Source: Nitrospirota bacterium
GTDB lineage: Bacteria > Nitrospirota > Thermodesulfovibrionia > SZUA-242
NCBI GenBank assembly: GCA_003235715.1
Contig: QJVM01000155.1
Coordinates: forward strand, 4,577 to 68,576
Direction of reading: 5' to 3'
Length of the DNA stretch: 64,000 bases
The translations under genes were made by a program, and so were the position numbers. The notes beneath the pieces were generated by a model that saw only the letters and a list, made by a program, of their open reading frames with translations, was not told the origin of the DNA and made no database searches. Below, piece after piece: positions 56,832 through 64,000 of this stretch. The stretch's first letter is position 1, and every line of letters begins with the position of its first letter.

Positions 56832-57122
56832 ATGCCAATCTACGAATATGTCTGCACCAAATGCCGGAAGCACACGGAGGTCATGCAGCGCATCTCGGAT
56901 GCGCCCCTCACCAAGTGTTCCTCGTGCTCCGGAAAATTGAGAAAGCTCATGTCCAGCACCTCCTTTGTCCTGAAGGGCAGCGGATGGTACAAGGACGGAT
57001 ATGCCACTCCGCAGTCTTCGGCCAAGTCCGATACCTCGACGTCATCCACCGCTCCGGAAAAGAAGGAAGGGAAGACCTCCGCCTCATCGGAAAAGAAAAA
57101 GGCTGACCCCGTTGCCGCGTAG
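56832..57122 (+). CDS. FmdB-family zinc-ribbon protein
   Basis: MPIYEYVCTKCRKHTEV...CSSCSG is the FmdB Zn-ribbon hallmark. It has a Ser/Lys-rich tail. Confidence 0.75.
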   Translation: MPIYEYVCTKCRKHTEVMQRISDAPLTKCSSCSGKLRKLMSSTSFVLKGSGWYKDGYATPQSSAKSDTSTSSTAPEKKEGKTSASSEKKKADPVAA

Positions 57123-57135
57123 CCGGGCGGTCCAT

Positions 57136-57891
57136 GTGCCGTTCCCGCGGCTGCCCGAATCCTGGGAGTGGCTTCGGGAAAGGCGTCTGGACGTGGAGAT
57201 CATGTTTTCGGCTCCCGTCCTGGACCGTCTGACGGATTCGGACCTTGACCGAACGCTGGCCACACCCGGATACACACCCCGGATTTCTGTCCATGCGCCC
57301 TTTATGGACCTTTCCCCGGCCGCCGTCGACCCGCTCGTTCGGGAAGTTACCCTCCGCCGATTCAGGCAGGTGACACGAATAGCCCGGAAGTTTCCGGTTG
57401 CCACCATAATCTTTCATTCGGGTTACGAAAAGTGGAAATATCACCTTCACCCCGAAATATGGCTGGAACGGTCGGCCGCGACCTGGCACGACGTTCTGCG
57501 CGGACTCGACGACCTGCCGACATGCATCGCCATCGAAAACATCTTTGAGGATAGGCCGGACAACCTCGTTGCCCTGGCTCAACGAATGGACCATCCGCGC
57601 TTCGGATTGTGCTTCGATTCGGGCCACTTCAATCTCTTCGCCCGTCTCGACCTTTCCGAATGGCTCCGGCAAACCTCTCCCCATATTTTTCACCTGCACC
57701 TGCACGATAACGACGGAACCGCTGACCGGCATCAACCACCGGGAGAAGGCACTTTTCCTTTCATCCGACTTTTTGAGTGGTTCGGATCCCAGTTGCCGCC
57801 GCACACACTCGAAGCTCACGACCGGGAGGGGATGCTGAAGGGCCTGGCGGCCCTGGATACCCTCTTGGGTCCGTCCGGGAAGGAAACATGA
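57136..57891 (+). CDS. xylose-isomerase-like TIM-barrel protein (sugar-phosphate isomerase/epimerase / AP-endonuclease-2 superfamily)
   Basis: Start tentatively at GTG 57136, just after the FmdB stop. It carries metal-ligand motifs typical of this fold (IIFHSGY, IAIEN, FDSGHFN, LHLHDN). Confidence 0.65.
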   Translation: MPFPRLPESWEWLRERRLDVEIMFSAPVLDRLTDSDLDRTLATPGYTPRISVHAPFMDLSPAAVDPLVREVTLRRFRQVTRIARKFPVATIIFHSGYEKWKYHLHPEIWLERSAATWHDVLRGLDDLPTCIAIENIFEDRPDNLVALAQRMDHPRFGLCFDSGHFNLFARLDLSEWLRQTSPHIFHLHLHDNDGTADRHQPPGEGTFPFIRLFEWFGSQLPPHTLEAHDREGMLKGLAALDTLLGPSGKET

Positions 57892-59370: not shown

Positions 59371-59730
59371 ATGGATCTGCGCGACAAGGGATGGATCAGG
59401 GCCTGCCTTCTCATGATGGGAGGGTTTATAGGTGGATTTGGGCTCGCTCAGGCGGAAAACAGCGGGAAAATTGCCGTCAGCCTTGAGGAAAAGAGTCCTT
59501 ACGGAACCTTCACCCCGGTATCAAGCCACGTATACGGAAACCGTGAAAAGGTTCTGAAACCGATTGAGGCGCAGAAGATCCTTACAGATTATTATGTTCC
59601 TCGAGGGCTTCGGATTGGCTCTCTTTCGCAACGAGGGGATTTCTTTGAAACGGACGTATTCAGGGGGGACAAACGGGTCGACCACGTCATCATTCACCGG
59701 GTCACCGGCAGAATCCGGTCGGTTTATTGA
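59371..59730 (+). CDS. PepSY-domain small secreted protein
   Basis: 119 aa with a signal peptide/TM (IRACLLMMGGFIGGFGLAQA). The C-terminal PepSY-like block is KPIEAQKILTDYY...DKRVDHVIIHRVTGRI. Confidence 0.55.
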   Translation: MDLRDKGWIRACLLMMGGFIGGFGLAQAENSGKIAVSLEEKSPYGTFTPVSSHVYGNREKVLKPIEAQKILTDYYVPRGLRIGSLSQRGDFFETDVFRGDKRVDHVIIHRVTGRIRSVY

Positions 59731-59879: not shown

Positions 59880-61229
59880 ATGCCACAAACATCTCGGGGA
59901 AACCGGCTCTTTTCAGGAACCCTGACCCTGCTTCTCCTTTTCCTTTCGGTCACTGCGGCCCGTGCCGCCTACCCGGTTCATGAAGAAGTTCTCGAGAACG
60001 GGCTTAAGATTCTCGTTCTCGAAAACCGTAAGGCACCGACCGCCACATTCCAGATCTGGTACCGGGTCGGCGGCGTGGACGACCCACTGGGCCGAAGCGG
60101 AATCAGCCATCTTCTGGAACATATGATGTTCAAAGGTACGGAGAAATTCGGTCCCAAGACCTTTTCTCAAACGATCAAACGGGCCGGCGGCGTCGACAAC
60201 GCTTTCACCTCCAAGGACTACACCGGGTATTTCCAGCTCATGTCGGCCGACCGCCTCCCCATTGCCATGGAACTGGAAGCGGATCGCATGTCGAATCTTC
60301 TCCTGCCCGAGCAGGAGGTCATGTCCGAGCGAGACGTTGTGAAGGAGGAACGCAGACTCCGCTACGAGGACGATCCGCAGAGTCTCGTTTATGAGGAGGT
60401 CATGGCCGCAGCGTTCAAGACCCATCCCTACCATCGTCCGGTAATCGGGTGGATGTCCGACCTGAACAGTATTGTCCCCTCTGACCTCGTAGAGCATTAT
60501 CATCGCTTTTACACGCCGAACAACGCCGTCGTGATGGTGGTCGGGGACGTCGATACCGCTGAAACCGTGGAGCGTATACGGTCTTGGTTCGGCCACATCC
60601 GGCCCGGGCCGCCTTTGCGAAGGTCGGATCTTGAGGAGGGGCCGCAGTACGGAGAACGAAGGGTCATGGTCCACAAGGAGGCCCAGTTGCCCTACGTGAT
60701 GATCGTATTCAAGACCCCGGCGCTTCCACACCGAGATGCCTATGCCCTGGACGTACTTGCAAGCATTCTTTCGGAAGGCCGGACGTCGCGCCTCTACAAG
60801 GCCCTGGTCCATGAACAGAAGCTCGCCCTTTCAGCGTGGGCCGCCTATGACGGTCTTGCCAACGGGCCCGGCCTTTTATATCTGGGAGGGACCGCCGCAT
60901 TGGGGAAATCCGGAGAGAACCTAGAGCAGGCCCTTCTCGCGGAAGCCGAACGAATAAAGCAAACGCCTCCAACAGAACGGGAGATCCAGAAGGCGAAGAA
61001 TCAGGTCGAAGCGGGTTTCATCATGGAGCAGGACTCCATCTACATGCAGGCCAGAACCATCGGGGGCTTCGAGATGGCCGGGGGATGGAGACAGATCGAT
61101 GATTACGTAAACGGCATACGGGCTGTGACCGCAGAAGACGTCAGCCGTGTCGCACGCGAATATCTTATGGATGACCGGAAAACAACAGGAATCCTGATAC
61201 CTGAAACAAGCCCCGGGGGGACCCTATGA
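59880..61229 (+). CDS. M16-family zinc metallopeptidase (pitrilysin-like, active subunit), secreted
   Basis: 449 aa with a signal peptide, an inverted zinc motif HLLEH (HxxEH) and the downstream Glu in ERDVVKEE. Confidence 0.85.
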   Translation: MPQTSRGNRLFSGTLTLLLLFLSVTAARAAYPVHEEVLENGLKILVLENRKAPTATFQIWYRVGGVDDPLGRSGISHLLEHMMFKGTEKFGPKTFSQTIKRAGGVDNAFTSKDYTGYFQLMSADRLPIAMELEADRMSNLLLPEQEVMSERDVVKEERRLRYEDDPQSLVYEEVMAAAFKTHPYHRPVIGWMSDLNSIVPSDLVEHYHRFYTPNNAVVMVVGDVDTAETVERIRSWFGHIRPGPPLRRSDLEEGPQYGERRVMVHKEAQLPYVMIVFKTPALPHRDAYALDVLASILSEGRTSRLYKALVHEQKLALSAWAAYDGLANGPGLLYLGGTAALGKSGENLEQALLAEAERIKQTPPTEREIQKAKNQVEAGFIMEQDSIYMQARTIGGFEMAGGWRQIDDYVNGIRAVTAEDVSRVAREYLMDDRKTTGILIPETSPGGTL

Positions 61230-62584
61230 GTTTCTTCACACCGCCTAGAAGCTTTCTTGGCCCCGCTTCCTGTTGGGTTCTGCTATCCAGTCTCCTCCTC
61301 TATCCGGCTCTTGCGGGAGCCACCCCCGCGAGACTGGCCGAGCGGGAGATTCTCTCCAACGGGATGGTGCTTCTTCACAGCGAAAAACGCACCTTGCCCA
61401 TCGTAAAGATTACCCTGGGCGTCCATGCGGGCCAGACCGAAGAGACGGAAGAGTTGGCCGGCCTCTCCAGCCTCACGGCCTCTCTCCTCAGCGAGGGCAC
61501 AAGCTCTCGCACCGCAGACGAACTCAACGAGGCCATTGAGTTTGTTGGAGGCTCCCTCTCGGCTGAAGGCGGGGGGGAATATGCGACGATCAGCCTGTCC
61601 GTGCTCAGTAAGGATCTTCCACTCGGATTCGAACTTCTCTCCGATATCCTTATGCACCCGACATTTCCCGAATCCGAGGTCGTCCGAAAGAAAGCGCAGT
61701 TCAAGAGCAGTATCGCGCGCCAGAAGGAGGATCCGGGAAGCATCGCCGGGAAGACTTTCGCCCGGGAGTTGTACGGAAACCACCCATTGGCCTGGCCGCC
61801 CGAGGGGACCGAGGAATCCCTCGACCGCATCAACCGGTCGGACATCGTCGAATTTCATGACCGGTACTACCGACCGAACCGTGCATGGATGGCCGTCGTG
61901 GGGGATGTGGACCGGGACGAGGTCGTGGCCCTGGTAGACCGTTTCATGAAGGACTGGAAGCCCGGGGAACCGGCTCAGGAGAAGCCGTACACCCTGTCCT
62001 TACCGGACGCGCGAAAAATCGTTCGGATCGACAAGAAGATCACCCAGGCCAATATTATCCTCGGACATCCGGGCATTCATCGGTCGCATCCTGATTATTA
62101 TGCGGTGCTCGTCATGAATTACATTCTCGGCGGCGGAGGGTTTGCGTCCCGGCTCATGGACACCGTACGGGACGATATGGGCCTCGCTTACGACATCCAC
62201 AGTTCCTTCGCCCCCAACAAGACGACCGGCGCCTTCGAAGTCGTGTTCCAGACCAAGAACGAATCGGCGGCCACCGCGGTGGGCCAGGTGCTGAAGGAAA
62301 TGGAACGCATACAAACCGAGCCGGTGACAGACCAGGAACTCGCTGACGCCAAGGCCTACATCACGGGGAGCCTGCCTCTGCGCATGGATTCAAACGCAAA
62401 GATGGCCGGCCTACTGGCTTCAGTGGAGTATTTTGGTCTGGGCATGAATTATCTGGAAGATTACCTAGATGCCGTAAATCGGGTGACGACGCAAGACGTG
62501 CTGCGGGTGGCCCAGGAGTACCTTCACCCTGACCGATTCATTCTCGTGGTCGTCGGGGATCAGAACGTGGTCAGCCTCGAGTGA
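61226..62584 (+). CDS. M16-family peptidase homologue lacking HxxEH (non-catalytic partner subunit), secreted
   Basis: 452 aa with an M16 fold but no HxxEH. It is overlap-coupled (4 nt) to the upstream M16 gene, a typical heterodimeric pair. Confidence 0.8.
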   Translation: MSFFTPPRSFLGPASCWVLLSSLLLYPALAGATPARLAEREILSNGMVLLHSEKRTLPIVKITLGVHAGQTEETEELAGLSSLTASLLSEGTSSRTADELNEAIEFVGGSLSAEGGGEYATISLSVLSKDLPLGFELLSDILMHPTFPESEVVRKKAQFKSSIARQKEDPGSIAGKTFARELYGNHPLAWPPEGTEESLDRINRSDIVEFHDRYYRPNRAWMAVVGDVDRDEVVALVDRFMKDWKPGEPAQEKPYTLSLPDARKIVRIDKKITQANIILGHPGIHRSHPDYYAVLVMNYILGGGGFASRLMDTVRDDMGLAYDIHSSFAPNKTTGAFEVVFQTKNESAATAVGQVLKEMERIQTEPVTDQELADAKAYITGSLPLRMDSNAKMAGLLASVEYFGLGMNYLEDYLDAVNRVTTQDVLRVAQEYLHPDRFILVVVGDQNVVSLE

Positions 62585-62661
62585 TCTCCGCGACCGCGCC
62601 AGCCGGTCACTTCAAGACACTCCCGGCACTTGCCCGCCGGAACCCCGGATGAAAAGCCGGG

Positions 62662-63816
62662 TTACGCCGGTCGGATGCCGAAGGCCGCGCATTTGACCGG
62701 GTCTGGGCCCAAGGGGTCTCCCGCCTTCTCCGCGCGGTAACGACAGCCGCCTCGGCAGTCGTCCAGGTGACAGCAACGACAAGACAGGGCGTCTGTTCCC
62801 TGTCTGGGAAGACGGGCCCACAGAGTTTCAAGTCCCTCCCGGACGTGGCCCACAGGACGGTCTGTGTAGTAACCGCATTTGCAGCCCGTCCCCTGGGCGG
62901 TAATCGTCATCAGATGACAGCCGCAGAGGCTATTGTCGCCCCCTTCATGCAGGCTGCCTCCAAAACCATAGGATAAATACCGTCCCGCCTCTTCGGCAGG
63001 AACCAGTAGACTTCGATTCCGGGAGAGCGTCCCGGCATCGGCCGGGGCATCCACGGACCATTCTTCGGCGCCGAGGTCACGGACCAGGCCAGCCAGTTCG
63101 TCAAGCTCGTCGAGATTGCCTTTATGGACCATGGTGGCCACAGACACGGCCTTCCCGGCTTCTCGGAGGTCAAGGATGGCCCTTAAGGTCTTGTCAAACG
63201 AGCCGGCACCCCGCAGGGCTTCGTGGCCCGCCTTCATTCCGTCAAGGCTCACCTGAACTTCGTGGACATTCAGCTCCCGGGCGACCGTCCTGTCTATCAG
63301 GGTCCCGTTTGAAAGAAGCACCACCCTCACCTTCGTGGCCCGGAACATCCTGTTCAGTTGATGGAATTGCGGATGCAACAGAGGCTCCCCCCCGGAAACC
63401 AGAAGCCGGAGGCCCTGCATCTGTTCAAATTGCCGGAGAACCTGCCTCACCTCCGCGGCGGTCAGGTCCACGGCACGCGCCGGTCCGAGATAGCAGTGAA
63501 GACATCTCAGGTTGCATCGATTGGTAACCTGAAGCTCAAGATATCGGAGCGAGGGGACAGGACCGGGTTTCACGGCAACCTGTCGTGGCCGGGGTTTCCG
63601 GGAACGCCTCTCGAGTATCCCTTCATCCAGGCAATATTCGATGAACTCCGGATCCTCCGCCCCGGACTCAGGAACCCCGGTCTCCGCGCAGCCGAGGAGA
63701 AACTGAAAAGCGTCCTCATCGATTTCGAAAAGGGTGTCCGTATCCGGCTGGTAGACTGCAGGAGTTTCGAGCTTCCTGAGAAGAACGCCGTCCCTCAGAG
63801 CCAGCCAGGAGAGCAT
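62662..63816 (-). CDS. radical SAM/SPASM-domain enzyme with an N-terminal PqqD-like (RRE-type) domain
   Basis: 384 aa. The N-terminal ~100 aa has a PqqD-like pattern (LRDGVLLRKLETPAVYQPDTDTLFEIDEDAFQFLLGC...EFIEYCLDEGIL). The rSAM motif is TNRCNLRCLHC, and the C-terminal SPASM Cys clusters are CGCH...CKCGYY...CRCCHLDDCRGGC...C. Its ATG lies 2 nt after the aat stop. Confidence 0.8.
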   Translation of the reverse strand: MLSWLALRDGVLLRKLETPAVYQPDTDTLFEIDEDAFQFLLGCAETGVPESGAEDPEFIEYCLDEGILERRSRKPRPRQVAVKPGPVPSLRYLELQVTNRCNLRCLHCYLGPARAVDLTAAEVRQVLRQFEQMQGLRLLVSGGEPLLHPQFHQLNRMFRATKVRVVLLSNGTLIDRTVARELNVHEVQVSLDGMKAGHEALRGAGSFDKTLRAILDLREAGKAVSVATMVHKGNLDELDELAGLVRDLGAEEWSVDAPADAGTLSRNRSLLVPAEEAGRYLSYGFGGSLHEGGDNSLCGCHLMTITAQGTGCKCGYYTDRPVGHVREGLETLWARLPRQGTDALSCRCCHLDDCRGGCRYRAEKAGDPLGPDPVKCAAFGIRPA

Positions 63817-63818
63817 CG

Positions 63819-64000
63819 CTAGAATCCTACCTGAAGCGACCAGGCCTTCCCCAGAAGCCTCAGGTACTCGGCTCGGGATATCTCCACGGCGCCCAGGGGA
63901 ATCGTCGCGCGTGTGGCCATCTGGCAGTCCAACAGGCTCATTCCTCGTTCTTTCATTCGCGCCACCAAGGCAGCCAGGCCCACTTTGGAGGCATTGGAGA
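63819..64000 (-). CDS. aat: leucyl/phenylalanyl-tRNA-protein transferase; 3' end only, the gene continues past the window edge
   Basis: The - strand translation ...SNASKVGLAALVARMKERGMSLLDCQMATRATIPLGAVEISRAEYLRLLGKAWSLQVGF* matches the conserved Aat C-terminus. Confidence 0.7.
   Translation of the reverse strand, partial: SNASKVGLAALVARMKERGMSLLDCQMATRATIPLGAVEISRAEYLRLLGKAWSLQVGF

Follow-up and report, generated by a model that had tools for sequence, protein, structure and literature searches.

Maturases of RiPPs (peptides that are made on the ribosome and modified after translation) such as SuiB, SkfB, CteB and TigE contain a RiPP recognition element (RRE), a radical S-adenosylmethionine (SAM, AdoMet) domain and a SPASM/twitch domain. 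In the QhpD/QhpC system, a SPASM enzyme cross-links the Cys residues of a small protein subunit. Here, we analyzed a radical SAM gene on a 64-kb stretch of a Nitrospirota contig (GenBank assembly GCA_003235715.1, contig QJVM01000155.1), which is referred to below as the window; the coordinates of its features are window positions, and genes on the minus strand are read in reverse. The gene lies directly behind aat, which encodes leucyl/phenylalanyl-tRNA-protein transferase, and faces a pair of M16 peptidase genes. Its product is one of a large, uncharacterised group of RRE-radical SAM-SPASM maturases, a family of anaerobes, mainly Thermodesulfobacteriota and Nitrospirota. Neither aat nor M16 is a conserved partner of this family; its conserved partner is an unannotated Cys-rich protein. 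We consider it probable, with considerable room for doubt, that the window encodes an orphan enzyme of the family which became joined to a clpA-aat operon and modifies a Cys-rich partner encoded elsewhere, and that the M16 peptidases are unrelated to it.

The radical SAM enzyme and its family

The core of the window enzyme was recognized by Pfam PF04055 with 75.8 bits (E 5.8e-21, cutoff 29.5), and its cluster motif is CNLRCLHC (residues 101-108), which places the protein in the radical SAM superfamily. When 5.8 billion proteins were searched for homologues, more than 3400 protein clusters were retrieved, among them 96 that were clustered at 50% identity and have E<=1e-30. Orthologues that span the full length (about 388 aa, 49-55% identity) are densely represented; they come mostly from metagenome-assembled genomes of Thermodesulfobacteriota and are named only 'radical SAM protein' or, by the Joint Genome Institute (JGI), 'radical SAM protein with 4Fe4S-binding SPASM domain'. 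All three Cys of the core are invariant in an alignment of 119 sequences.

An AlphaFold model built on this alignment had a predicted local distance difference test (pLDDT) score of 90.9. Its best full-length fold matches in the PDB were SkfB (E 1.8e-15, 411 columns) and SuiB (template modelling (TM) score 0.67, 458 columns), and SkfB was also the top match among PDB sequences. Since the full-length model aligns end to end with both proteins, the peptide-maturase architecture that an initial annotation had read from the letters alone is borne out.

The isolated N-terminal domain has the RRE fold, a winged helix with a beta sheet followed by helices, and can be superposed on known RREs. A Foldseek search agreed with this assignment. 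Searches with sequence profiles did not: even at E<=10, Pfam returned neither PqqD (PF05402) nor SPASM when the N- and C-terminal pieces were searched on their own, and a PDB-sequence profile search with the N-domain alignment yielded no PqqD or RRE chain and only two chance matches. The earlier assignment of this domain to PqqD/RRE thus holds at the level of the fold and fails at the level of Pfam and PDB sequence profiles, and the domain is shorter than had been claimed (about 75 aa instead of about 100 aa). Three of its residues, E17, D27 and C62, are invariant in the 119-sequence alignment.

The C-terminal region contains seven Cys in the arrangement C298-x10-G309-x4-C314, C346-x-C348-x5-C354-x3-C358 and C376, all of which are invariant in the 119 homologues and in 83 locus-derived sequences. 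This is the seven-Cys SPASM motif (C-x9-15-G-x4-C...C-x2-C-x5-C-x3-C...C) with one deviation, as the first spacing is CxC instead of the Cx2C of SuiB, SkfB, CteB and TigE. Both the CxxxCxxC core and the multi-Cys SPASM C-terminus had therefore been read correctly from the sequence. The SPASM model TIGR04085 matched the enzyme over positions 1-84 of 93, with a score of 18.8 bits (22.8 bits for a homologue) against a cutoff of 27. An eighth auxiliary-cluster Cys, located in a DxPC motif at position 259, is present in 113 of the 119 homologues (95%). The window protein has Ala at this position, as does P0001, a relative with 99% identity, and five other homologues have Ser. Ala259 may leave one auxiliary cluster with an open coordination site.

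None of the curated NCBIfam equivalog cutoffs was reached by the enzyme, and the matches cover only the core. The scores (bits/cutoff) were 100.5/400 for ScmE, 100.1/265 for MftC, 79/625 for StsB, 61.7/850 for AlbA and 60.6/381 for PqqE (TIGR02109). With SuiB, SkfB, CteB and TigE, the enzyme shares only 13-20% identity and no maturase model cutoff was reached; it lies outside their curated families while being alike in architecture. It also differs from PqqD/PqqE, not only in the low PqqE score and the missing Pfam match to PqqD, but also because there is no PqqA-like Glu/Tyr peptide and the active M16 subunit (M16A) is not PqqF.

The best NCBIfam matches include NirJ and AhbC/AhbD (86-92 bits), and the PDB searches by sequence and by fold also returned BlsE and the anaerobic sulfatase maturase (anSME). 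These similarities would suit a SPASM enzyme that does not act on peptides, i.e., a haem enzyme of the NirJ or AhbC/AhbD type, an anSME or a BlsE-like decarboxylase, an assignment that we regard as highly improbable. The scores lie far below cutoffs of 400-650 bits (500-650 for NirJ and AhbC/AhbD; NirJ 92 vs 515) and reflect the shared core only. Over the full length, the folds that match best are those of SkfB and SuiB, both of which bear an RRE. To our knowledge, no N-terminal RRE domain is known in NirJ, AhbC/AhbD, anSME or BlsE. Moreover, no haem, sulfatase or nucleoside genes are conserved near the family members. Clustering with sulfatase-maturase or NirJ/haem families, a test proposed in the initial annotation, was thus not observed. 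We conclude that the gene encodes a genuine radical SAM enzyme, and one of a class whose targets are peptides or small proteins.

A Cys-rich partner protein of the family

The genomic surroundings of the family were surveyed in one genome per GTDB species. Of the 503 loci obtained, the best 80 were retained; L numbers below denote loci or contigs. A metagenome scan with a single protein returned mostly generic radical SAM genes; four of its loci are family members. Open reading frames (ORFs) around the 80 species loci were clustered without prior assumptions, and a conserved small protein was found directly upstream of the radical SAM gene in 52 of them (29 co-directional, 23 divergent). It is likewise upstream in all four metagenome loci. 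Overall, 56 of 79 informative loci carry this partner next to the radical SAM gene, five partner-less loci with less than 600 nt of upstream sequence having been left out.

In Thermodesulfobacteriota, Chloroflexota and Actinomycetota, the partner is a short protein (54-85 aa) encoded co-directionally and typically 2-40 nt from the start of the radical SAM gene. Its motif reads L-I-C-x-x-C-x-F-Y-K-E-x-x-K-D-L-E-C-G-A-[YF]-K-I-L, in which C13, C16, F18, C28 and L34 are invariant, including three Cys (C-x2-C-x-F-[YFW]...C). The Nitrospirota partner is a two-repeat form of about 115 aa, which is transcribed divergently at a distance of 36-333 nt. A database search retrieved 518 clusters of the partner, all named 'hypothetical protein', with 75-96% identity between species, and no significant match was found in Pfam, NCBIfam or PDB sequences. 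The partner family appears to be undescribed in the libraries and literature that were searched.

One locus (L073, positions 1269-2771 of its plus strand) encodes the two-repeat partner domain and the radical SAM enzyme as a single in-frame fusion, with the partner domain at the N-terminus. Six further N-terminal fusions were detected among the 50%-identity representatives (P0243, P0250, P0251, P0254, P0281 and P0330, the last with only part of the radical SAM enzyme), and the fused domain measures about 100-125 aa. Accessory genes depend on the lineage. In 16 Thermodesulfobacteriota loci (L002-L025, e.g., L015 9223-10137, plus strand), the gene directly downstream of the radical SAM gene encodes an ATP-grasp-like protein (about 304 aa; ATP-grasp_3 in Pfam, E 2e-6; weak similarity to RimK and TTL), and these loci thus have a three-gene unit of partner, radical SAM enzyme and ATP-grasp protein. 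Seven loci in total have a cupin-like domain of about 100 aa: in L032, L045 and L066 it extends the two-repeat partner at its C-terminus as a fusion, and it is encoded by a separate gene next to the partner or the system in L056, L065, L073 (2755-3096) and L079.

The conserved Cys protein of 54-120 aa distinguishes this family from SuiB, SkfB, CteB and TigE, which act on a short, variable leader-core peptide. In this respect, the family is similar to QhpD/QhpC, where a SPASM radical SAM enzyme is also paired with a small, conserved protein rich in Cys and Asp/Glu and not with a short peptide. On the other side, the QhpD model TIGR03906 was not among the significant matches, amine dehydrogenase genes are not found nearby, and cross-linking is inferred here. 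In sulfate-reducing and syntrophic anaerobes, the enzyme-partner pair is a concrete candidate for a post-translational modification that would be new. The value of the analysis rests mainly on this family-level pair, with its wide distribution, its previously unannotated partner, its natural fusions and its lineage-specific ATP-grasp and cupin accessories, and less on the window locus.

According to the explanation that we favour, the window gene would encode a cytoplasmic enzyme of three domains, namely an RRE-like domain for peptide docking, the AdoMet radical core and a SPASM region with auxiliary Fe-S clusters. The Cys-rich small protein would be docked by the RRE domain and then be modified by the radical SAM and SPASM machinery. 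The chemistry would most plausibly be a cross-link centred on Cys, like those of sactipeptides, ranthipeptides or QhpC, a guess that we make because the nearest characterised relatives form thioethers or cross-links and because Cys, Asp and Glu abound in the partner. In the lineage of the window, the enzyme gene would have been relocated to the 3' end of a housekeeping operon, clpA-aat (N-degron), and would have been inherited with it, and the partner gene would presumably lie in another part of the genome, which is also assumed for about a quarter of the other lineages.

The main rival to this explanation takes the Cys-rich protein as an auxiliary metal-binding or electron-transfer module of the rubredoxin or ferredoxin kind and not as a substrate. 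Such a role would suit the seven N-terminal fusions of the partner to the enzyme and its fusions to a cupin, its one or two CxxC-type knuckle motifs per protein, and its very high sequence conservation. It would also suit the Nitrospirota loci (e.g., L056, L074, L077 and L029), in which the partner and the enzyme are encoded among rubrerythrin-like proteins (Pfam Rubrerythrin); from their sequences, we take other neighbours to be Fe/Mn superoxide-dismutase-like, nitroreductase-like and DsrC/TusE-like proteins and a 2-oxoacid:ferredoxin oxidoreductase. These surroundings may be a redox/oxidative-stress neighbourhood, or they may only mirror lineage synteny. However, the short form of the partner has only three invariant Cys and no conserved fourth ligand, and no metal-binding family was matched in Pfam, NCBIfam or PDB sequences. 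What an RRE normally docks is the peptide substrate, and the loci offer no other small ORF that is conserved. Furthermore, fusions between enzyme and substrate occur in RiPP biology, the borosins being an example. An auxiliary module is therefore rather unlikely in our judgement. In six of the Nitrospirota loci (L033, L041, L071, L074, L076 and L078), a second, shorter radical SAM paralogue of about 330 aa with conserved neighbours of its own is located 1-2 kb downstream.

The window itself was searched for the partner and the accessory proteins. A six-frame regular-expression search for the Cys motif gave no match in the 64 kb, and the one tblastn match to the partner, within a gene that we read as encoding an ATPase of the GspE/PilB type, was put down to chance. 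The ORF list and the six-frame motif search also confirmed that there is no precursor ORF at the locus, as had been noted initially. Similarly, a tblastn search of the window with the ATP-grasp, cupin, rubrerythrin-like, superoxide-dismutase-like and DsrC-like neighbours found none of them, and a motif search for a cryptic partner gave no credible candidate in 18 of the partner-less loci or in the contigs L082, L083 and L085, which share the aat arrangement of the window.

Several observations weigh against the preferred explanation, in which the partner is a substrate and the window enzyme acts on it. No partner gene, partner motif, ATP-grasp or cupin was found in the window and four related contigs, and the substrate in this lineage is unobserved; a substrate gene next to the enzyme gene, as expected for RiPP or protein maturation, is seen in the wider family and not in the window. 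The fusions of the Cys domain, which recur with the enzyme and in some loci with a cupin, fit an auxiliary metal or redox domain equally well, and the conservation of the partner between species is unlike that of a typical secreted RiPP core. As for the enzyme, its RRE-like domain and SPASM region both stay below curated sequence thresholds, and it lacks the widely conserved Cys at position 259. Finally, keyword searches of the literature returned no publication or experiment on the enzyme family or on a link between aat and the radical SAM gene.

The clpA-aat operon and the M16 peptidases

The aat fragment in the window encodes the last 59 residues of the protein (38.3 bits with TIGR00667; Pfam Leu_Phe_trans match). 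In L001, where the translated radical SAM gene is identical to the window protein, the full-length Aat scored 209.4 bits with TIGR00667 (cutoff 143.55) and is thus an Aat equivalog. As the initial annotation had stated, the aat stop codon lies 2 nt before the ATG of the radical SAM gene. The junctions are tight in three lineages (TAG-CG-ATG, which is that of the window, and TGA-CG-ATG, with 2 nt each, and TAATG, with a 1-nt overlap), and co-transcription is very likely. Between lineages, aat and the radical SAM gene diverged in parallel (73/58% and 64/55% identity). Because of this parallel divergence and the tight junctions, we conclude that the pair is a real, vertically inherited operon arrangement, which is confined to one small clade (55-100% identity).

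Three relatives of the window locus show how far the arrangement extends. L082 (99% identity) encodes the ClpA C-terminus, Aat and the radical SAM enzyme, followed by a convergent M16 gene. L083/L084 (65% identity) retain the whole window synteny, including the genes for both M16 subunits (M16B and M16A), a 99-aa gene and a fusion of TatD nuclease with a radical SAM domain. In L085 (55% identity), clpA, aat and the radical SAM gene, the last two overlapping at stop and start, are followed by a gene for a tetratricopeptide repeat (TPR) protein and not by M16. The order clpA-aat-radical SAM was found only in these loci, corresponding to 4 of the more than 3400 protein clusters. Since the ClpA C-terminus is encoded upstream of aat in L082 and L085, aat of the window is probably preceded by clpA in the same operon past the window edge. 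ClpA is the usual N-degron partner of Aat, and the position of aat behind clpA accounts for its presence without the radical SAM gene. The locus therefore matches the canonical clpA-aat pair in having an Aat equivalog behind ClpA, and differs from it in the radical SAM/SPASM gene that is appended with a 2-nt spacer in a small clade only. In a neighbour-joining tree, the aat clade is placed beside L073, which has the fused partner, and L026, which has none.

In L085, a Cys-rich, zinc-ribbon-like protein of 86 aa is encoded downstream of the radical SAM gene; its motif is unrelated to that of the partner. In three Nitrospirota loci (L027, L031 and L053), the radical SAM gene directly follows a gene read from sequence as gpsA (glycerol-3-phosphate dehydrogenase), and the surrounding 8 kb contain no partner. 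Here, too, the radical SAM gene seems to have become joined to a housekeeping gene.

Linkage was assessed by tblastn with Aat, both M16 proteins, a 119-aa protein encoded next to them and the TatD-radical SAM fusion in the 8 kb around each radical SAM orthologue. None of these was detected in the 80 species loci, and neither aat nor M16 was near the radical SAM gene when the four metagenome loci were included (0 of 84).

A functional tie between Aat and the enzyme, without M16, would have the enzyme of this clade act on the N-degron pathway, e.g., on an Aat-aminoacylated protein or on Aat, ClpS or ClpA clients, with Aat standing in for the ATP-grasp ligase of the main clade. This reading is quite unlikely in our view. 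The stop-start junctions (a 2-nt spacer twice, a 1-nt overlap once) persist over 55-100% identity with parallel divergence, and the usual partner was not found in the aat clade. In addition, an ATP-grasp-type ligase follows the radical SAM gene in 16 main-clade loci, and ligases of this type, like Aat, add amino acids to proteins. On the other hand, the canonical Aat equivalog behind clpA is explained without the radical SAM gene, and the coupling is limited to the 4 protein clusters mentioned above. The RRE of the window enzyme keeps E17, D27 and C62, suggesting the same partner as elsewhere, and the other lineages without an adjacent partner, about a quarter, have no aat either. An Aat/N-degron tie has no positive support past the operon structure. 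It is also conceivable that the family and its partner form an undescribed maturation system of anaerobes for proteins or cofactors, sometimes self-contained through fusion, and that this system has been rewired in the aat clade, with Aat replacing the ATP-grasp ligase so that Aat and radical SAM chemistry meet on the same target. We consider this scenario very unlikely.

The M16 genes overlap by 4 nt. Only M16A has the HxxEH motif (HLLEH), and both translations start with signal-peptide-like N-termini. The earlier description of an active/inactive pair with signal peptides that is convergent with the radical SAM gene is therefore correct. Among solved structures, M16A is closest to the heterodimeric M16B peptidase of Sphingomonas (3amj/3ami), which it matches over its full length (E 4e-98), and the Sphingomonas sp. 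A1 enzyme is likewise an active/inactive two-gene pair, a similarity that concerns the neighbouring M16 genes only. Together with the TatD-radical SAM fusion and a small secreted protein, M16A and M16B belong to a neighbouring synteny block, and synteny breaks within the 77-nt convergent spacer, as the M16 genes are kept in L083 and not in L085. A role of the pair as a PqqF/PqqL-type leader peptidase was rejected: the scores with the PqqF model TIGR02110 were 47.1 bits for M16A and 15.4 bits for M16B (cutoff 320), and M16 was unlinked in 84 of 84 loci. The proposed link between M16 and the radical SAM gene did not stand, since the two are unlinked in related genomes, the very finding that the initial annotation had named as decisive against it. 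We judge the M16 pair to be an ordinary secreted heterodimeric peptidase that is functionally unrelated to the radical SAM enzyme.

If aat, the radical SAM gene and the M16 genes were one RiPP-like unit, the enzyme would modify a peptide, M16 would trim it and Aat would add an N-terminal residue. The genes are indeed adjacent, with aat and the radical SAM gene tightly coupled, the same arrangement is retained in the 65%-identical L083, and the enzyme has the RRE-radical SAM-SPASM architecture. Nevertheless, M16 is missing at all 84 other family loci and in L085, the M16 genes are convergent with the radical SAM gene, both M16 proteins carry signal peptides while the radical SAM enzyme is cytoplasmic, M16A stays far below the PqqF cutoff (47 vs 320 bits), and a precursor ORF was not found at the locus. 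We therefore consider such a unit extremely unlikely and regard the grouping as a lineage-specific juxtaposition and not a biosynthetic unit, which for the window is mostly a correction.

Feature coordinates and neighbouring genes

All radical SAM, aat and M16 features were located where the initial annotation had placed them (Table 1). The convergent spacer between the M16 and radical SAM genes (62585-62661) contains neither an ORF, according to the ORF list, nor significant structure upon folding, and a scan for promoters and terminators, like the folding of this spacer, gave results at chance level only.

Table 1. Positions of the features discussed in the text within the window.
Feature	Position	Strand	Basis or remark
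Radical SAM/SPASM enzyme gene	62662..63816	-	ORF of 384 aa plus stop; Pfam Radical_SAM
N-terminal RRE-like winged-helix domain, residues 1-75	63592..63816	-	Fold-level basis
AdoMet radical core, residues 96-243	63088..63531	-	Pfam PF04055; CxxxCxxC at 63493-63516
Divergent SPASM-type auxiliary-cluster region, residues 298-376	62689..62925	-	Seven invariant Cys
Codon of radical SAM enzyme residue 259 (Ala)	63040-63042	-	Alignment with homologues
aat 3' end (leucyl/phenylalanyl-tRNA-protein transferase)	63819..64000	-	Leu_Phe_trans, TIGR00667 (fragment 63819-63998)
Secreted M16 peptidase, active subunit (M16A, HLLEH)	59880..61229	+	Peptidase_M16 and M16_C
Secreted M16 peptidase, inactive subunit (M16B, no HxxEH)	61226..62584	+	Peptidase_M16 and M16_C
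TatD nuclease-radical SAM fusion, 500 aa	57777-59279	+	TIGR00010 286 bits; TIGR04038 266 bits, cutoff 129.7
119-aa protein with signal-peptide-like N-terminus	59371-59730	+	Just upstream of the M16 pair
96-aa ORF	56832-57122	+	FmdB-like by eye

The TatD-radical SAM fusion, which joins a TatD-family nuclease to the TatD-associated radical SAM domain, is a second, unrelated radical SAM gene at a distance of 3.4 kb from the first; its synteny with the M16 pair is shared by L083. The 119-aa protein matched no family in Pfam or NCBIfam; its place is taken by the 99-aa gene in L083. The 96-aa ORF begins with MPIYEYVCTKCRKHTEV and, judged by eye, looks like a CxxC zinc-ribbon protein of the FmdB family. 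It overlaps a longer ORF (57001-57891) in a different frame.

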